The notes under the pieces: model-generated
Database searches by the model: none
What the model was told of the DNA's origin: nothing
What the model saw: the letters and a program-made list of their open reading frames with translations, nothing else
Program-made: the position numbers and the translations under genes
Origin: a virus
Taxonomy: Duplodnaviria > Heunggongvirae > Uroviricota > Caudoviricetes
DNA length: 37,333 nt
Reading direction: 5' to 3' (one strand)
Virus record (IMG/VR): IMGVR_UViG_2563366859_000002
Shown here: positions 1 to 37,333 of the stretch, in pieces
Position numbering within the stretch: the stretch's first letter is position 1
How the letters are laid out: each line of letters begins with the position of its first letter

Positions 1-91
1 GAGTCTTGAGTCTTGAGTCTTGAGTCTTGAGTCTTGAGTCTTGAGTCTTGAGTCTTGAGTCTTGAGTCTTGAGTCTTGAGTCTTGAGTCTT
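1..91 (-). repeat. Tandem heptanucleotide repeat GAGTCTT (AAGACTC on the coding strand), 13 complete copies, probably continuing past the left edge
   Basis: Perfect 7-bp periodicity from position 1 to 91, directly abutting an ATG on the minus strand at 94-96. Confidence 0.95.
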
Positions 92-96
92 GACAT
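1..96 (-). CDS. neuO: 5' end of polysialic acid O-acetyltransferase NeuO (partial, runs off the left edge); repeats encode RLKTQDS heptapeptides
   Basis: Reverse complement reads ATG TCA AGA CTC AAG ACT C...; position downstream of an endosialidase-type tailspike matches the known CUS-3 arrangement. Confidence 0.65.
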   Translation of the reverse strand, partial: MSRLKTQDSRLKTQDSRLKTQDSRLKTQDSRL

Positions 97-249
97 ATTA
101 GTATCCTACGTTATTTTACCACTAGTTACTTTTCTTGTCATTAAAAAGCATTTAAATTTTTATATTTAATTTCGTTGACGTCAATGTTTTTTGCCAATGT
201 ACTTACTTCTTTATGTGAGCAGTTCATATTTTTGACGCCAACGAAACAT
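97..249 (-). promoter_or_regulatory. AT-rich region between tailspike stop and neuO start, presumed neuO promoter/leader
   Basis: About 150 bp of AT-rich non-coding sequence immediately upstream of the neuO ATG. Confidence 0.3.
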
Positions 250-3195
250 TTAGTGCTTCCCTTCTATTAAGTCTAACCTAGCTTTTATTCTTTCTATTTC
301 TCTGCGCTGCCATGCCGCCTCGATATAGAATAAGAGATCAGGTCTGACCCCCCATCTAGATCCTGCTGGCGTTATTTCAACGCGCTCAATGATGTCTTCC
401 ATTACCATCACTGGATTATCATCCTCATCAACAATGATGCTCCCGTCATTATCAGTCAGCGGCATTTCCCTTTGGCCAGTAATGACGTCATCATATACTG
501 CGGGATAATCGTCATAGCAAAGAAAGGCATAGCGGCATGTTGTGCTTTCTTCTTCCATGAGTCCGTGAGAAATAAGAACATCACGAAGTTGCTGCGCGAT
601 TACACCATGATGTATCCTCGCCCCTTCTTCCCCCTTTATAGCGACAGCGTTCAGCCATTTATAAGCGATATACCTGACGTCACCCCAGGCATCCAGCAAT
701 TCTTCGTCAGGAGAGACCGGCTCTGTCTTTAATGTTCCGTCACTGGTAACCACAGGATTGGAGCCAAGATAAACTGTCGAGAACCTGTTTCCCGGACCAC
801 CAAGAGCATTTACATTATCAAGATAAGGTTTAACATCTCCGTTCTCAAAAAGATGTTCGAGTGCGTTATATACCGCGCGACGTGGAGTACTGCTTCCGGA
901 ACCATGCAACGTTATCATTGCACCATCTGCTGAAGACGTTGTTTCACCGCCGCTAACGATTAATCTCTGAGCGGTAACATCATCAGACGGTACTTTCTTC
1001 GCAATAATGGCGTAATTACCCTCAAGTTTGACTTCCGCGCGAACTTGTCCTGATGTACCTGCATGGACAGTCAGTGACTGGACGGCAACATCATCTGTGA
1101 AATCAACGGGTACAGGAACCGTCCTCACGCCTGACGTCGACATAAAAGTAGGAAGCGTTCTGTTAGGAGTGGCTCCGTAGACAAAATCCCTTGAAACAAA
1201 TTCTTCCTGTTTAATTTTCACCCTGAAACAATACAAATCAGCCGGGTGACCATCGTGAACATAAGGATATTTTCTGTTGTTATCCCCTATGCTCCATGGG
1301 TTTAGAAAGTCTTCCCCACCGAAAATGTAGTACAGCCAGTTGTCTTTGATACAAACTGAACCAACACCAACCGCAGAGTTAACTATTCCGCCCTGATAAA
1401 TCTGATCAGTAACATTAACCCACTCTACATTATCCAGACTCCACTCATTGACGTTAACTCTGGTCATAAATGTTCTTGGATAATTTCCTGCATAACGGTT
1501 ATCAGGTTCTCCTCCTTCCCACTCACCAAATGCGCGCTCACTGCCAAAAATAATCAGCTCATCGCCAACTTTGGCAAAAGGAAGGTTTGAGTGATGAACA
1601 TTATTTGGGAAGCGAAGAGAATTCCATGATGTACCTAAATCAGAGCTTCTGTGCAATGAACTACCGGGTTGAGTACTTAATGTCCCCCTGGTCGTCAGAT
1701 ACAGAATGCCATCATAATATTTTACACATGGCTCAGATGCATTCGCCTCATATTCTGCAGGTATGCGTCTGCGAACAAAGCTACCAGGAGAACCGAAAGC
1801 ATCAGAGAAATAGAGTATCCCAAGCTCGCGTGGGCCAATATCACCATTATGGTAGCCAACAGCAAAACTGTTATCGCTAATCGTCGCAAAACTGTGAATC
1901 TCAGTAACAGGAGTGCTTCCGTCAACAAAAGAAGGAATAGTTCCAAGACTGGTTTTTCTCCATGGTGACGAGTGAAATGATGTACCAAAACTCCAGTATC
2001 TACCCTCGTTATTCTGATCCACATCCTGGGTATTTTGCGTCGTAACTGTAAAAGTATTTTTATCAATAACAGTAGTCACCGTCATATTCCCGGTAACACC
2101 TGTAACACCAGAGTTTGAGAAGTTGACAAAATCACCAGCAAATAATCCGTGATCAGTAATGCGAATATAAGCGACTTGCTGATTTGCTGCTTTCGTTATA
2201 CCACCATAAACGCGAAGGCTGCGACTCATTGGGCGATCCCACAACTCTGCAACCTGCAGTTTATTTCCGCTCACGGTCCGCGTCTCAATTACAGCAAAAA
2301 GGCGATTTCTGACAACCCCCATACTCATGCAGTGATAGTTAACTGTGGGATAGTTTTCATGTAAATCTGTAAGCCATTCCGGCGTTGTCCAGGTCTTCCC
2401 GTCATCTCCTGAGCGAACCCATGCAACATGGAGGTTATTTACACCATGGCGGTCTCCAGCCATAAAAGGCGCATAGATGACATTGTCATATACAAACGTT
2501 TTATCCTGCGTCCAGGCGTTGTACCACGGTGTATCTGTAATTTTAAATAACTCTCCCTGGATAAAATCTTCAGAAGCATAAAAAAGAGGCTGACCCGGTA
2601 TTCTCTCAAATAAAAAACGAGCATTTTTAAATCGACTGACATCTGGAAGAGTTGATACTTTAAAAGTAAGCCCTCGCCCATCTATCTTTTCACCACCTGT
2701 TGCAACAGAAAGTAATTCTGATAGAGCTGATGTATCATCATGAACACCATCACCAATAGCCCCCCAACCTCTTACATCATAACTGTCTCTCCATCTTGCT
2801 ATCTGAAGTTTTGGGTATTTATTCGCTCCATCTGGGTCTTCTAATTGCTGCCGTAACTGATCAGGATCATACTTCAGCACATTCGGAAAATAGAACTGCT
2901 GTGTACCATACGCATCATAAACAGCCATAGAATGGCCTTGCACGGTTACGAACTTGGCAATCTGTCCGTTATATACCGGATATCCAGCGGCGTTAATGAT
3001 GATTGGTTGCGAAACAGGAACGTGAGAACCATCTTCGTTCTCAACATAGACCTGAATCTGGTTTTCAGGATTTACCGGGTCAGTGTCAATTTTACCGATA
3101 TAAATTTTGCCATTAGCTACGGCTTTAAAAGAACGCGCCATAGTGAAGAGTTGCGAAGGCATACTCACTACAACATTGGCTGTAATGTCTGTCAT
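250..3195 (-). CDS. Tailspike, 981 aa: P22 gp9-like head-binding N-domain, sialidase-like domain with two Asp-boxes (endosialidase-like), C-terminal chaperone-like domain
   Basis: N-terminus [11 protein letters not shown]...KYDPDQ matches P22 gp9; Asp-boxes SGDDGKTW (2389-2412) and SSDLGTSW (1624-1647); S-D at aa 818-819 before a conserved C-terminal domain. Confidence 0.85.
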
Positions 3196-3254
3196 TTAAT
3201 TTGCTCCAGATACAAGGAATCGCCGCAGCATGGCTACGGTTGGCATTTATTACA

Positions 3255-3267
3255 TACCGAAACGGTA
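3255..3267. promoter_or_regulatory. Palindrome TACCGAAACGGTA between divergent tailspike and mnt-like genes; candidate operator
   Basis: Perfect 5-bp arms around AAA in the 132-bp divergent intergenic region. Confidence 0.3.
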
Positions 3268-3327
3268 CGATTGTTGATTTGTACAGTAGGTTTTACGATG
3301 CCATTCCACCCATTTGGTGAGGCATTG

Positions 3328-3585
3328 ATGATGTACAGCAAATACGATGAGGCGCAGTTCCACTTGAGGCTTACACACGAGTTGCACGCTAAGATTAAGC
3401 AGCGTGCAAAAATGAATAACAGGTCTATCAATTCCGAAATTGTGGCTACGATGGAAGAATCACTCTCCAAACCATCACCTGTAAGCGGGTATCGTGATGA
3501 AGAAGAGAGGCTGGCCTCATTAATCTCGGAACGAGTAAAAGAAGTTGCGGCTGAAATTCTAAGGAAAGAAAAAACCCGCGATTAA
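3328..3585 (+). CDS. mnt: Mnt-like ribbon-helix-helix repressor, 85 aa
   Basis: RHH motif ...NNRSINSEIV... and C-terminus SKPSPVSGYRDEEERLA resemble P22 Mnt; SD GGTGAGG before ATGATG. Confidence 0.7.
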   Translation: MMYSKYDEAQFHLRLTHELHAKIKQRAKMNNRSINSEIVATMEESLSKPSPVSGYRDEEERLASLISERVKEVAAEILRKEKTRD

Positions 3586-3600
3586 GCGGGTTTAGTTTTC
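3565..3600. terminator. Rho-independent terminator between convergent mnt-like and antirepressor genes, strongest on the minus strand
   Basis: Stem AACCCGC/GCGGGTT with a long U-run on the minus-strand side and a shorter one on the plus side. Confidence 0.6.
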
Positions 3601-3611
3601 ATTATAAAATG

Positions 3612-4340
3612 TTACGCCACATTTGAGCCATGTAGCAGGTGTTGTAGTGCTTTAACGCCTTCAGAATTGTAACGGAACGCCTCTACCTGTTTGCTGGAAT
3701 GCGCCGATTTATCCAGGAAGAACTTCCCGTACTGCTCAGTTTTGAGGTTGTTTGCGTTAGCAATGCGACCAATCTTGTTGGCCGTTACTCCAAGCTGCTC
3801 TGCAACCTCCCCTGCTGAGTAGTAATGCTCTTCTATTGCCGGAAGAGGTATTGCATTAAAACCAACAAGCGGGTTGATTATACTTGCTGCCGCTGTCTGC
3901 TTTGCCTCAGGCGCAAGATTTGGCATCAGATCGAACAGATTGGTAACAGCTTCAACCGTCATTTTCAATGTTCGCGCTTGACGATACTCAACAAGTCCAC
4001 TCGCTGATTTACCGCTTTTAATGTGCGCTTCTTGCATACTTTCAAGTTGGTCTACCAGTGAGCGGCGAACGGCTTTTGACTCGCGAGCGGCAACTCGCAA
4101 TGCTTGCTTGATTGACATCTCAATGATAACCATCGAAGTTTTGTTCGCTTTTTGCACTACACTTTTTGTGTAGTGCTCTCCATCCAATTCATCTTCAATT
4201 TTCTCGATGAATTTGTTATTACGAACCTCCGGCTCACCGCACTGTCTACGAGCCTGATTTACCATCTCAAGCAGGCGCTGGCTGTCAATGGTTTTATCCG
4301 TGACAACGGATCCGATGTTTGCTACATTCTTAAAAGTCAT
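3612..4340 (-). CDS. Antirepressor-type regulatory protein, about 242 aa, KilA-C-like C-terminal domain
   Basis: Internal start MTFKNVANIG with SD AAGGAA; C-terminal YYSAGEVAEQLGV...NKIGRIA motif typical of phage Ant/KilAC proteins. Confidence 0.6.
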   Translation of the reverse strand: MTFKNVANIGSVVTDKTIDSQRLLEMVNQARRQCGEPEVRNNKFIEKIEDELDGEHYTKSVVQKANKTSMVIIEMSIKQALRVAARESKAVRRSLVDQLESMQEAHIKSGKSASGLVEYRQARTLKMTVEAVTNLFDLMPNLAPEAKQTAAASIINPLVGFNAIPLPAIEEHYYSAGEVAEQLGVTANKIGRIANANNLKTEQYGKFFLDKSAHSSKQVEAFRYNSEGVKALQHLLHGSNVA

Positions 4341-4410
4341 TAGGCATTCCTTATGTGGTAGTAAGGGTGTGACATAGGCCGCCAGCAGCACACTGGCGGT
4401 TTTCTTTTTG
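4335..4410 (+). ncRNA. Candidate sar-like antisense RNA (about 75 nt) covering the RBS and start of the antirepressor gene
   Basis: Plus-strand promoter-like GTGACA-17bp-TACATT (4300-4328) followed by a strong plus-strand-only terminator at 4379-4410, antisense to the gene start at 4340. Confidence 0.4.
4379..4410 (+). terminator. Rho-independent terminator on the plus strand inside the minus-strand ant region
   Basis: Stem GCCGCCAG/CTGGCGG(T), 7-nt loop, then TTTTCTTTTT; no U-run on the minus-strand reading. Confidence 0.6.
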
Positions 4411-4428
4411 CGCCGTCCGGCGCACCAA

Positions 4429-5055
4429 TCAATGAATCCATTCCTCGCCGCGCAGTTTTGCCAGCATTGGCTGAGCGTTCTTTACGACAAAATTGTTGGT
4501 ATCAAGATTCTTCATTTCACGAAGAAGTGATTTCTTGGTTTCTTCTGACATATAGCGAGTCTCATATGCGATATCGTAAATCCTTCCTGAAAGCTCAGAA
4601 CAAATTTGCTTCATTCCTGGGTAGATGTGTTTGCACATTTGTTGACTCTTCTCCATCCACAATTGTAAGTAGCAGAGATTAACCAGTTCTTCGTCAGTAA
4701 ACTGTTTTGCAATCGGTGAGCATTCTGCCTGCCGATCCAAAATATCCAGCACCCAGCGGCGGAACTCTTTGGCTACCGGAGTGCGAGCAAACATCGCGAT
4801 TAGGTGGGCACCGCGTAGTGAGAAAACTCGCACTTTTTTGCGATAATTTCCTGAGGTACTCACTTCGAGTACCTGAGTCATTCCGGCGCTAAACTCATCG
4901 CTATACTTGTTATAAATCATTGTTACTGCACGACTATTTGCGTATTTAAGTGCAGATGCAATATTAGATGATGTAAACCAAACACCATGCATATCACGGG
5001 TGGGCACCAACTCAACTCCGTGGAAGTTGTAATCTGATTTTGCTACAATATTCAT
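4429..5055 (-). CDS. Bro-N-like domain protein, about 208 aa, possible second antirepressor
   Basis: Internal start MNIVAKSDYNFHGVELV with SD AAGGAA; N-terminal region resembles Bro-N/Ant N-domains (GxWF...A.AL.Y.N). Track ORF N-extension rejected. Confidence 0.5.
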   Translation of the reverse strand: MNIVAKSDYNFHGVELVPTRDMHGVWFTSSNIASALKYANSRAVTMIYNKYSDEFSAGMTQVLEVSTSGNYRKKVRVFSLRGAHLIAMFARTPVAKEFRRWVLDILDRQAECSPIAKQFTDEELVNLCYLQLWMEKSQQMCKHIYPGMKQICSELSGRIYDIAYETRYMSEETKKSLLREMKNLDTNNFVVKNAQPMLAKLRGEEWIH

Positions 5056-5128
5056 GTTAGTTTCCTTGCATACGGTTACTGACATAGAGGCCCGGTTTGT
5101 GTTCGCGCACTGCCGGGCTTCACTATTT

Positions 5129-5296
5129 TTATGTCCTAGCATTCTTCTCTCCAATCAGTCCGTACACTTTTCTCAATTGATAAATAAGTTCCGTGTTGAA
5201 CTGTCGACACTCTTTTTCTCCATTTCTTTCAATCGCCTTCCTTACATCCTCTGGGAAACGAACCTTGCGTTGATACATGTCTTTTGCTTTTTCCAT
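5129..5296 (-). CDS. arc: Arc-like ribbon-helix-helix repressor, 55 aa (absent from the ORF track because under 60 aa)
   Basis: MEKAKDMYQRKVRFPEDVRKAIERNGEKECRQFNTELIYQL...; SD AAGGAG 5 nt before ATG; position first in the ant operon as in P22. Confidence 0.6.
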   Translation of the reverse strand: MEKAKDMYQRKVRFPEDVRKAIERNGEKECRQFNTELIYQLRKVYGLIGEKNART

Positions 5297-5313
5297 CTCC
5301 ACTCCTTAAATAG

Positions 5314-5376
5314 CCCCACTGTGGGGCAATTGAAATTGTCACACCGTGCGTCATTGAAGTCAACCCCACCGTGGGG
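5314..5376. promoter_or_regulatory. Two 13-bp palindromic operators (CCCCACTGTGGGG at 5314-5326; CCCCACCGTGGGG at 5364-5376) in back-to-back divergent promoters
   Basis: Plus promoter TTGAAG(5354-5359)-17bp-CATAAT(5377-5382) has an operator in the spacer; minus promoter TTGACT-17bp-GACAAT has an operator just after +1. Confidence 0.55.
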
Positions 5377-5419
5377 CATAATTTACTTATTGTGAATTTT
5401 TCCTGTTTGGACTAATGGT

Positions 5420-5794
5420 ATGAGTAGAGAAGACCCTCAACTTCGGATTAGGCTTCCTGTTGAATTAAAAAAAATAATTGAAGCGTCATCAAAACAAAAT
5501 AATCGTTCTATGAATGCTGAGATTGTCACTCTGCTTGAGTTGGCGATTCGTGTTTGTCGTGATTTTGGGCCGGAGGATGGTCCTATCGTTCAGCAGTTTA
5601 AAGAACAACTAGATGCGATAAACAGAAAATATGATAAAATCGAGCATGAAAAACTTATACCTCAACTTTTAGAAATCATAGAAAAACAGAAAAAACAAGT
5701 AGATAAACTTATTAGCATGGTTGAAAGATCAATTCCTCTTTCAGAGGAATATAAGCAGAAATATCTTGGTGATGACAACAAAAAACCCACCTGA
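5420..5794 (+). CDS. Mnt/Arc-family RHH repressor with extended coiled-coil C-terminus, 124 aa
   Basis: N-terminus MSREDPQLRIRLPVELKK...NNRSMNAEIV parallels P22 Mnt; divergent from arc, as mnt is in P22. Confidence 0.65.
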   Translation: MSREDPQLRIRLPVELKKIIEASSKQNNRSMNAEIVTLLELAIRVCRDFGPEDGPIVQQFKEQLDAINRKYDKIEHEKLIPQLLEIIEKQKKQVDKLISMVERSIPLSEEYKQKYLGDDNKKPT

Positions 5795-5819
5795 CGGTGG
5801 GTTAATTTTTGCCTTTTTT
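5784..5819 (+). terminator. Rho-independent terminator after the 124-aa RHH gene
   Basis: Stem ACCCACC/GGTGGGT followed by a T-rich tract. Confidence 0.6.
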
Positions 5820-5892
5820 GGACCATATTGACTACTCATAAAATGAGATCAATATTTAATCGCCCAATAACGGGTGTATGTTGAGGTATATC

Positions 5893-6072
5893 ATGGCGAA
5901 AAAACCAGGTGAAAACACAGGAAAAAACGGCGGAATATACCAAGAAGTTGGCCCACGCGGCGGTAAGAAAGACAATTTTGCCACCGTCAAGGACAACGAA
6001 AGGCTTCCGCCAACAACAAAGCCAGGTCATGGCTGGGTATTGGATAAGCGAACTCCAGACAGCAAAAAGTAA
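5893..6072 (+). CDS. Small YjzC-like protein, 59 aa
   Basis: MAKKPGENTGKNGGIYQEVGPRGG...; SD GAGGT; own promoter-like TTGACT-17bp-AATATT (5828-5856) with CTCAT/ATGAG inverted repeat in the spacer. Confidence 0.55.
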   Translation: MAKKPGENTGKNGGIYQEVGPRGGKKDNFATVKDNERLPPTTKPGHGWVLDKRTPDSKK

Positions 6073-6085
6073 TAATCAAGCCGGG

Positions 6086-6451
6086 TCACTCCGGCTTTTT
6101 GATATGTCGCTCGCAGAACTCAACAAGCCTGCTCATTAAGTAGCAGTAAGTCTCATTGGCTCTTCCTGGTTCAACATCAACACCGACCCTTGAGCAGATA
6201 TCGAATGCCATGTGAGCGCACTCATGGGCAATAGTAGATAGTTTGCCATTGAACACGCCTATCACATGCAAAACACCATTCTCGCTGCTCATTGTATGAG
6301 ACGCTCCGTTGGCATCCGAGTCCTGCACGTCCACACCAAGTTTTTGATGCAGGCGTTGCCATTCTGGAAAGTCTCTACAAAACACAATTGTACCGCTCTC
6401 AAAGAGCGGAACGAGCATCTTTGGTACGTTTCCAATGTTAACTTTTTTCAT
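6086..6451 (-). CDS. Hypothetical 121-aa protein with HExxH...E motif (possible small zinc metallopeptidase)
   Basis: Motif IAHECAHMAFD with Glu residues 14-20 aa downstream; the antisense plus-strand reading looks non-proteinaceous. Confidence 0.5.
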   Translation of the reverse strand: MKKVNIGNVPKMLVPLFESGTIVFCRDFPEWQRLHQKLGVDVQDSDANGASHTMSSENGVLHVIGVFNGKLSTIAHECAHMAFDICSRVGVDVEPGRANETYCYLMSRLVEFCERHIKKPE

Positions 6452-6481
6452 GGTATCCTGCTCAAAACTAAGGAGGTTGGT

Positions 6482-6709
6482 GTGAAGCGATGGTTCCTCA
6501 TAATTACTGTTTTCGCGATCATTTACGCTATTTTCCCTGCATTAAAAGCACCAATGCAAATAATTTCACTAGCAATAATTGCAATTGGTGCTTTCATTAC
6601 AGTATCCGTACTTGTGTTTAAGGTTTTAAAGTTTTTAGTTTGGCTATCAAAAGATGATGGATGCAAAGTTCATCAAGAAAAAGAAGGCAAAATAACCAAA
6701 GTTGACTAA
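6482..6709 (+). CDS. Small two-helix membrane protein, about 75 aa, GTG start
   Basis: Strong SD AAGGAGG 5 nt before GTG; two hydrophobic segments (FLIITVFAIIYAIF and IISLAIIAIGAFITVSVLVF). Start uncertain. Confidence 0.45.
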   Translation: MKRWFLIITVFAIIYAIFPALKAPMQIISLAIIAIGAFITVSVLVFKVLKFLVWLSKDDGCKVHQEKEGKITKVD

Positions 6710-8829
6710 CTGTCACTAGCGAGCCATGTAATAATCCCCGTGCGGGCAATGGTTTTTGCTTCATCTGTTGATAGGGTTTTCTCCCATCTCTTAAATGCCC
6801 CAGATTGCATCAGTTTCCTTTCTATTGCGCGTCTCACTTCTGCTCTGTCTACTGGTGCGTTTTGCAGGCGAAATAGCATTGATTTAAACTCAGGAGAAGA
6901 CAGTAGAGCATCAGCAGCCTTTATCCTGCTTGTTTTCCCTGACATCAATGCGGACGTTATCACCCCTGTTGCACCTACACCAGGAAGACCAGATAAGCTT
7001 GTAATACCTTCCGCCGCAGCAGCTTTTGAGGCTATTCCATAAATTTTTGCTAGACTACCCTTTTCCTTCAGAAAGTTATTAACTTGCTGATCCACAAGGC
7101 TGCTAGCATACTGCTTACCAGTATTGAGTCTATTCATAGCCTTGGCTGCTTGATAAATCGTATCAAGGCGCTTTGATGCATCTGTGCCAATAGCATCACG
7201 GAGAGTCTTCATATTGGCCCCATTGCGTGATATTCCGTTATACCATTTTACAAATCCATCAACCCCTAATTGCTGACCTGGTGATTTAGCATAGCTGGTA
7301 AATGCTTTATTCATTGAGGTGAGCACAACTTCCTGCCGCATATCCTTTGGAATTGACTTCATTAATTGCCTAAAGTCACCACCGTTTCCTTTTGCCATAT
7401 TAACAACGGCACTTTCAACTTTTGGAATTGCTGATTGCTGAAGTTTTCTACCCAAAACGGTTACGGCATCATCTTCAATGGATTTTCGTTTTTTTACCAA
7501 CTCCTTACCAAGCGTCCATAACTCCCCTGCGCCATATTTTTCTGCGACAGCCTGTTGGTCATCTGTTATAGCTGCATATAACTTTTTAAGAACACCTGTT
7601 TCTTCATCCTTGAATGGGCCAGAGCCTTTGCCAATAGCTTGCCCAACCTGCTTTCTGGCGAGATCTAAACGCCCATACGTTGGCAAGGTGTTTGGATCAA
7701 GTCGGTTCAATGTCCGCTTCATTATTGGAGATAATTCATCAATTCCACCTATGTCATCAGCAAAATCCTCTAAAAAATTCAATGTATTGGTTGCCTCAAT
7801 ACGGTCTCTTACTGGAACCTTTTCGGCAATTTTGTTGTAGATGTTATCTGACTGATTTTGTAATGATGAAATGGTTTTATCAAAATTATCTGCAAGCCTG
7901 TCAGAAACCAGTTGCTTATCAAGGTTTCCCCCAAATGAAGTTATCATTTCATCAGCTTTTCTTCCTAATTCAGTAATAAAGCGCTTATGCGCCTCACTAA
8001 TCTCTGTTCCAGGAAGACTTGCCACTGCATTATCAAGAGCCCTGACAGCAGGATTATTAGAGATCATTCCTGGAGTGGCATAATTTTCCAGTTCTAGCTC
8101 ACGGATGGCATTTATCGCGTTAAAATCAGGATTAACTTCATCGGCGAAACCTTGAATAGCTCGTTGCCCGCCAATAAATTTATTATCCATTGCGCCAGCA
8201 GCTTTCTTTAACGTTGCTTTAGATGATTTACTCCCCATCCCTACGGATGAGCGATAAATATCCCCGGCACTATTTTTAATTTTTCCTGCAATCTTCCCAA
8301 GCGCTGGACCAACAATCTCGGCTACAGGGCCAGCCACAGCGCCAATAGCAGCGCCGGAAGCAACATCGCTATTTGTTCCATTGGCTACAATAGCCCCTTC
8401 TCCAGCACCAAGCCCTGCGGCGGCAGCCAGCCTTGCCGCCCCTTTCGGAACCTGAGAAATAATCCCACCACCACTAACAAATGGCGCGGCTTGTCCAACA
8501 AACTCACCAACATCTTGTGCGGTTGATGGTTTTGCCGCTAACTTCTGCTGTAGAGACTGAATTGCGGCTTGCTCTTCTGGTGTCATATCCTGAAACAGGC
8601 CAACACCTTTACCAACATCCATCAATCCACTGAGAACGCCATACATAAAACGGTCGAAGCCGTTAGCATTATTAACAACATTTTCCTGTCTGGAATTTTC
8701 CTCTGGTGAAACCAAAGGAGATTGCTGCTGTTCTGGTTGGGCATCAAGCACAAAGCCATCAGGAAGCTGTGAGTTATCAGGCTGATTATCGAGAACAAAG
8801 CCTTCGGGTAAACCTACATCGGTTGCCAT
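6706..8829 (-). CDS. Ejection/internal virion protein, P22 gp16-like, 707 aa
   Basis: Position last in the ejection-protein trio before the accessory region; large Ala/Gly-rich protein. Confidence 0.65.
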
Positions 8830-10157
8830 TGTCCGTTCCTGTAAATGAGTTTCTGACCAGTTTTAGGGTTCGTTGCCGTCGCGCCTTCTGATATCCCACT
8901 TGGCGCAGCTTTTGTCTGCCCATTACCACCTTGTGGTGTAGGCTGCGCTGGGACATCGTCAAATAGCTTGGCCTTCCTTCTCCCTAAGCTTTTTTTCAGC
9001 CCCTGAGGAATAGTATCTCCATACGTATCCAGATATTCGTCTACCTGCTGGTTAAACTGCTGCCCCATAGCGTTGGCGTTAATTTTTGCTGCGTTAACAA
9101 TGTTATCCCTCGCTTCCTGTGACAAGCCATTCCCTGCATTAAGCTGGTCTACATATCCTTTTATCTGCCCCCATATGCCATCAGAGCGCATAACCTGAAC
9201 CTGTTCACCTTCGCGAACAACTGACTGAGGGTCGAGAGACTTCATGTAATTAAAGATAATCCCAAGTTGGGCAGCGCCAGTATTTACCTTGCTAAGGGCT
9301 TGCAGAGAGTTTGCCGCCGCTCTGACAGAGTTATAATTTTTACCAAAATTGGTAATGTCAGAATTTAATCCCTTAATTAATTCTGCTGACGGCTTACCTT
9401 TTTGCCCCAGCTCCATTAGCTTCAATCCCATCTCATCTGAGTGCATTTGTGCCCGCTGAGCCCTGTCTAGTTGAGCGTTCTGGATATTTGCCCATCCTCT
9501 CTCGTTCTCCATGTCAGCCTGACGGATGCTTTCATCCAATCGCCCTTTCTCAATTTCACGACCAGCTATCTTGTCCTGAACAGCAAACGCCTTTTCTGGC
9601 CCAAGTGCACCGAGAGACATAGTAGTCAGCATGTGTGATAGCTGCTCTGGATTCTGAATACCTGTCTGAATCATCCAGTCAGCATTCGCCCCCACGCGAT
9701 TTAACCTGTCCTTGTTATCAGTAATGAATTTACTGTAGGCTTCCGGTCCCTGAGAAAGAGCGACGTTAGCCCTCATGGCTAAATCGCCCATATCGTTGCG
9801 TTGCTGCTCATTAAGACCGGAAAATGCCTGTTGTGCCTGTGCAACAAACGCTGGATTTTCCTGGGCAAACTTAAATAGTCCCGATGGATCACCAGAAGCC
9901 CATGCATCAGCGTGAACCTTATTGAACGCACTAATCGCTTTCTGTTGCTGTTCCTGCTTATAAATATCAGCAACTCCAGCCAGACCACGTAATGCGGTCA
10001 GACCAACGTTATTTGCACCTGATCGAGCCAGTTCATTGTTTTCGCGGATCAGACCAAGCGTTGCGTTAATGTCGCTTGCCTTTGGCGCATTCTCATTTTG
10101 CGTACCGATGCCAGCCAGAAAACCACCAGAATTAATACCCTGTTGCCACGTAGCCAT
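8814..10157 (-). CDS. Ejection protein, P22 gp20-like, 447 aa
   Basis: Synteny between gp7-like and gp16-like genes; size and composition. Confidence 0.65.
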
Positions 10158-37090: not shown

Positions 37091-37132
37091 GCCTGATTTG
37101 CAGGTTCGATTCCCTATTTGGAGATAGCACTC

Positions 37133-37333
37133 ATGCAACACGAACTACAACCTGATTCACTGGTTGATTTGAAATTCATCATGGCCGATACTGGCTTCGG
37201 TAAAACCTTCATCTATGACCGGATTAAGTCCGGAGACCTGCCTAAAGCCAAAGTTATCCACGGGCGAGCAAGATGGTTATATCGTGACCATTGTGAATTC
37301 AAAAATAAACTCTTAAGCCGCGCCAATGGGTAA
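37133..37333 (+). CDS. xis: Excisionase / AlpA-family DNA-binding protein, about 66 aa
   Basis: Motif TGFGKTFIYDRIKSGDLPKAKVIHGRARW typical of AlpA/Xis winged-helix proteins; last gene of the PL operon; stop at the window end. Confidence 0.6.
   Translation: MQHELQPDSLVDLKFIMADTGFGKTFIYDRIKSGDLPKAKVIHGRARWLYRDHCEFKNKLLSRANG

Follow-up and report, generated by a model that had tools for sequence, protein, structure and literature searches.

At the start of this viral DNA lies a long open reading frame (ORF) whose product begins like the P22 tailspike and continues as something else, raising the question of what has been joined to the P22-type attachment domain. The original prediction, made from the letters alone, placed at positions 250–3195 a chimeric tailspike with a P22 head-binding domain, a sialidase-like catalytic domain and a self-cleaving, chaperone-like C-terminus, next to the gene neuO. 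Within the window, i.e., the whole stretch of 37,333 nucleotides that was analysed, these coordinates proved exact, and the strand, which had been left unnamed, is the minus strand. The ORF is uninterrupted and encodes 981 amino acids, with the ATG at 3195–3193 and the TAA at 252–250. It is almost certainly siaK1, the endosialidase tailspike gene of a CUS-3-type P22-like prophage of E. coli K1, and nothing contradicts this identity. The features of the locus are as follows.

250–3195, minus strand: complete tailspike ORF, orthologue of CUS-3 siaK1 (ORF call; 98.9% nucleotide and 99.2% amino-acid identity to siaK1 of CP000711)
3204–3207, minus strand: GGAG ribosome-binding site, read from the sequence, with the ATG 8 nt downstream
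2857–3195, minus strand: P22-type head-binding (virion attachment) domain, aa 1–113 (PF09008, 6e-67; 1LKT, 2XC1, 8TVR, 7SG7)
2761–2856, minus strand: linker or neck, aa 114–145, common to K1F gp17 (aa 214–245) and the tailspike of phage Gally
2560–2760, minus strand: endosialidase N-terminal extension (End_N_terminal), aa 146–212 (PF12218, 9e-37)
1210–2559, minus strand: catalytic six-bladed beta-propeller (End_beta_propel), aa 213–662 (PF12217, 1e-233; 1V0E, E = 0)
1978–2226, minus strand: beta-barrel (End_beta_barrel) inserted into the propeller, aa 324–406 (PF12195, 1e-46)
2389–2412, minus strand: Asp-box 1, SGDDGKTW, aa 262–269, aligned to SGDDGQTW of K1F
1624–1647, minus strand: Asp-box 2, SSDLGTSW, aa 517–524, aligned to SRDIGQTW of K1F
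745–1209, minus strand: stalk (End_tail_spike; triple beta-helix region of the trimer), aa 663–817 (PF12219, 8e-78)
253–744, minus strand: C-terminal intramolecular chaperone/auto-cleavage domain, aa 818–981 (PF13884; 3GW6, 4e-94; dyad S818/K823)
1–96, minus strand: 5′ end of neuO, i.e., ATG (96–94), TC and 13 copies of the AAGACTC poly-psi repeat (sequence; CUS-3 annotation)

Domain architecture and conserved residues

Six Pfam domains, i.e., Head_binding and five endosialidase domains, were found in the 981-aa protein, all far above the curated cut-offs; the profile search that had been proposed as a check of the original prediction detected both an endosialidase beta-propeller and the chaperone domain. 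The Head_binding profile is covered over its full length (1–113 of 113). Residues 1–113 align without gaps to residues 1–113 of P22 gp9, with 87 of the 113 identical (77%), and the similarity ends at the common motif VLKYDPDQ. The homology is overwhelming, but at 77% identity the likeness is not "almost residue for residue", as had been claimed. The N-termini of the P22 and Sf6 tailspikes in the PDB match residues 1–127 only, and the accompanying claim that the remainder is unrelated to the P22 endorhamnosidase is borne out by this confinement of the P22 chains. The linker that follows is shared with the Gally tailspike, which is not an endosialidase.

The part previously called sialidase-like consists, more specifically, of the propeller, barrel and stalk of a phage endosialidase. 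In a PDB sequence search, the K1F endoNF structures 1V0E and 3GVL matched with E = 0 across residues 145–817, and a second solved endosialidase, 4HIZ (phi92-type), matched at 7e-273. An alignment of aa 114–980 with full-length K1F gp17 gave 62.7% identity. The predicted catalytic residues H250, R456, E488, R503 and R554 correspond to H350, R549, E581, R596 and R647 of K1F endoNF, with all five identical. A deep mutational scan of the K1F endosialidase identified 11 residues as catalytic or part of the active-site network (Q330, D331, H350, H527, S528, R549, E581, K585, R596, R647 and N699 in K1F numbering), every one of which is kept in this tailspike. The beta-barrel is, in K1F, a polysialic-acid binding site. 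Both of the Asp-boxes that had been claimed are present in the propeller and aligned with endosialidase motifs of K1F, and they were the only two matches in a scan of the whole protein for S-x-D-x-G-x-x-W.

At the C-terminal end, the S-D dipeptide noted in the original prediction is S818-D819 (nt 739–744), which is aligned to S911-N912 of K1F and marks the exact border between two Pfam domains, with End_tail_spike extending to 817 and Peptidase_S74 (PF13884, "chaperone of endosialidase") starting at 818. The latter was matched over residues 818–878 (2e-10, 41.2 bits against a cut-off of 22), and 3GW6, the structure of the K1F stalk and chaperone domain, was matched at 4e-94 across residues 698–979. 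The counterparts of K1F S911 and K916 are S818 and K823, which keeps the five-residue spacing of the Ser-Lys dyad at the start of the domain; the Ser/Lys pair at the aligned positions is the auto-cleavage dyad of phage endosialidases. The proposal of a self-cleaving-chaperone type of C-terminus is upheld by the domain match and the retained dyad, and the chain is predicted, by analogy with K1F, to be cut after S818 with K823 as the dyad partner. The calculated mass of the full protein is 109.3 kDa, and the predicted cleavage products are approximately 90.6 and 18.7 kDa. The folds can be taken as already fixed by sequence matches to solved structures, because the PDB matches reach E = 0 for the catalytic body, 4e-94 for the chaperone domain and about 1e-50 for the head-binding domain.

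The protein is nearly identical to one that is annotated as assayed. CUS-3 SiaK1 (CP000711, ABQ88383; also CAJ29292) has the same length of 981 aa and the same domain order, with 973 of the 981 residues identical, and the 98.9% nucleotide identity to siaK1 extends over the full length of the ORF. The eight substitutions, given with the window residue first, are V9I, P43T, T98A, P121T, A207V, G767R, T807I and E832T, none of which falls on a catalytic or cleavage residue. The GenBank record of CUS-3 names the product an endosialidase tailspike protein and credits it with endo-alpha-sialidase activity on direct-assay evidence (IDA, PMID 16689790); both its chimeric architecture and its activity were published in 2006. 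A review gives 109 kDa for the CUS-3 enzyme, in agreement with the mass calculated here. Based on the 99.2% identity to the CUS-3 protein, the protein encoded at 250–3195 would be expected to endo-cleave alpha-2,8 polysialic acid.

Proposed mode of action and the neuO neighbour

By homology to K1F endoNF and P22 gp9, a mechanism can be proposed in which the C-terminal chaperone domain would help the 109-kDa precursor to trimerise. After folding of the triple beta-helix stalk, the Ser818/Lys823 dyad would cut after Ser818, releasing the ~18.7-kDa fragment and leaving a mature subunit of ~90.6 kDa. Residues 1–113 would attach the trimer to a P22-type tail, and the propeller would hydrolyse internal alpha-2,8 linkages, while the barrel and stalk may provide extra polymer-binding sites, as in K1F. 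The virion would in this way reach the outer membrane by tunnelling through the K1 capsule, and in lysogens the product of the phase-variable neuO gene next to the tailspike would O-acetylate the same polymer. For the allele in the window, trimerisation, cleavage and activity are expected by analogy with these relatives.

That neuO lies next door, as had been stated, is correct insofar as its 5′ end adjoins the tailspike gene, but only the first 96 nt fall within the window; the repeat continues off the window edge, and the acetyltransferase body lies outside. The pairing itself is real, with the neuO start 153 nt beyond the tailspike stop, as in CUS-3. The phase of neuO is set by the copy number of the AAGACTC repeat, i.e., by whether or not it is divisible by three. 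The 13 copies are the visible ones only, since the window edge lies inside the repeat, which is consistent with an assembly break at that point. In neuO as published, two nucleotides separate the start codon from the poly-psi repeat, and the repeat in the window starts accordingly; neuO is placed relative to the tailspike as in CP000711. The idea that one phage can cut the K1 polymer and also modify it is already established, and NeuO acetylation has recently been proposed to act as superinfection exclusion against K1 phages. Between the tailspike stop and neuO, a consensus scan found no terminator, and the promoter-like sites at 141–113 and 184–156 (minus strand) occur at the frequency expected by chance for the region (10 found vs. 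8.3 expected).

Exchange joints, distribution and alternative readings

A blastn comparison of the window with the whole CUS-3 genome covered only ~46% of the window, structural-gene regions included, so that outside the tailspike block the prophage is a mosaic. The tailspike–neuO block (window 1–3240) exhibits 98.95% nucleotide identity to CUS-3; the homology breaks off 45 nt upstream of the ATG of the tailspike gene, within the element listed as "bsq1, boundary sequence" in the CUS-3 record. The same comparison gave no nucleotide match to CUS-3 for window positions 3241–9558, a region that includes the following genes.

3328–3585, plus strand: Arc/Mnt-like gene, convergent with the 259-aa ORF, without a CUS-3 counterpart
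3612–4391, minus strand: 259-aa ORF with no Pfam match, without a CUS-3 counterpart
4429–5154, minus strand: Bro-N/P22_AR_C antirepressor, without a CUS-3 counterpart
5420–5794, plus strand: Arc-like protein of 124 aa, without a CUS-3 counterpart

A bidirectional terminator-like hairpin lies at 3572–3593, between the Arc/Mnt-like gene and the 259-aa ORF. At the far end of the window, a 71-aa ORF (37118–37333, plus strand) lies directly past a match to the CUS-3 attR core (~37098–37113), and its stop codon closes the window exactly; the sequence of the ORF suggests a small DNA-binding protein of the AlpA/excisionase type. No tRNA genes were found in the entire window.

Two further phages divide the tailspike at other points. 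In the Uetakevirus vB_EcoP_ZX5 (MW722083, QTH80017), the DNA for the endosialidase body and the chaperone domain is 99.6% identical (query nt 522–2914), and the protein is essentially identical to the window tailspike from aa ~174 to ~971. However, the ZX5 tail fibre protein (1039 aa; 1803–4922) has a different and longer N-terminal attachment region (~190 aa) without a Head_binding match. Because the endosialidase module is 99.6% identical at the nucleotide level while the N-terminus differs, the comparison indicates a very recent module exchange between phage genera. The Lederbergvirus Gally (OV696608, 3001–5400; 799 aa), on the other hand, has aa 1 to ~150 in common with the window tailspike (91% over 159 residues), a part that includes the linker of K1F gp17, and in its remaining body neither endosialidase domains nor any other Pfam match were found. 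Since the P22 match stops at residue 113 and the Gally and ZX5 matches break at ~150–173, these comparisons imply two discrete exchange joints in the tailspike, at aa 113/114 and at aa ~150–173. A broader reading, in which the neuO–endosialidase block would act as a mobile cassette and would recently have passed between phage backbones that are otherwise unlike, is rather unlikely. The observations that fit it are solid, i.e., the ~46% match to CUS-3 with its 45-nt breakpoint, the body shared with ZX5 and the head-binding-plus-linker part shared with Gally, but it is doubtful that these observations are new, given earlier descriptions of both tailspike module exchange and the CUS-3 "boundary sequences".

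The sharp breaks at aa 113/114 (P22) and aa ~150–173 (Gally, ZX5), in an architecture that is plainly chimeric, could be read as the mark of a fusion newly arisen in this genome. However, the same full-length fusion occurs not only in CUS-3 but also in vB_EcoP-720R6, whose tail gene exhibits 99.4% nucleotide and 99.5% amino-acid identity, in phiv205-1 and in many complete E. coli chromosomes, and the exact fusion is already described in a review. A newly arisen chimera peculiar to the window is exceedingly improbable on these grounds, and the idea was rejected. The gene's central 2 kb, i.e., the catalytic part, is present at a nucleotide identity of at least 99% in 185 of 5426 complete E. coli genomes, where the chromosomal copies are mostly annotated "phage tailspike protein"; in some E. 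coli genomes, the catalytic region is matched at up to four places. It could also be argued that the gene is a dead relic of a cryptic prophage, with a protein that is inactive or never built into virions. Loss of function does occur in the population, as the orthologous gene is split by insertion sequences in NZ_CP135957 (MS1657, IS66-family ISCro1) and NZ_CP101741 (FY26, IS3 family). A relic is nevertheless very unlikely here: the ORF is full length, as in CUS-3, every catalytic and cleavage residue is intact, the identity is maintained across the 185 genomes, and the window also matches CUS-3 in structural-gene regions.

A change of specificity would be a subtler departure from CUS-3, with the eight substitutions, or the divergence of the stalk from K1F, shifting the enzyme towards O-acetylated polysialic acid or the alternating alpha-2,8/2,9 polymer of K92. 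G767R, T807I and E832T lie in or close to the stalk, and the position of K1F Q853, presumably a stalk binding residue, is occupied by Met760 in the window tailspike. The deep mutational scan of the K1F enzyme calls the stalk a host-specificity tuning region. However, residue 760 is outside the eight differences, so that Met760 is common to the characterised CUS-3 enzyme; the active-site residues of the propeller are identical to those of K1F, and the window allele is the common one among K1 genomes. Such a shift is hence about as improbable as a dead gene, and a CUS-3-type endosialidase tailspike remains the preferred reading.

Relation to known tailspikes

The gene, its chimeric architecture, the activity and the pairing with neuO have all been published previously and are unremarkable in an E. 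coli K1 lysogen. Because of this, and because annotations of E. coli K1 genomes routinely include the gene, the locus carries little weight as a discovery, and its mosaic tailspike illustrates a well-known principle rather than a new one. The presence of siaK1 is nonetheless a useful marker, identifying the window as a prophage of CUS-3 type from an E. coli with the K1 capsule, probably an extraintestinal pathogen, and it is relevant to phase variation of capsule O-acetylation and to susceptibility to K1 phages. With its near-identical module, the Uetakevirus ZX5 also offers a tidy case of recent receptor-binding-module exchange between genera.

Among the known systems, CUS-3 is the closest, with neuO and its AAGACTC repeat lying downstream of siaK1, as in the window. 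In a review, the CUS-3 tailspike serves as an example of module exchange, with its N-terminus conserved with P22, Sf6 and HK620 and its catalytic domain with K1F. The window tailspike likewise has the N-terminal head-binding domain of P22 gp9, which is also present in the Sf6 and HK620 tailspikes, but the body of the P22 protein is an endorhamnosidase beta-helix without a chaperone domain, and the two proteins are unlike beyond residue ~127. The K1F endoNF gp17 (1V0E, 3GVL, 3GW6) shows the opposite pattern. Its catalytic body and chaperone domain are the same as those of the window protein, whereas its N-terminus is of the T7 gp17 type (213 aa), in place of which the window protein has the P22 head-binding domain. 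Relative to K1F, the window protein also has insertions of 7 residues (aa 422–428) and, within the chaperone domain, of 8 residues, and the residue following the cleavage serine is Asp rather than the Asn of K1F.
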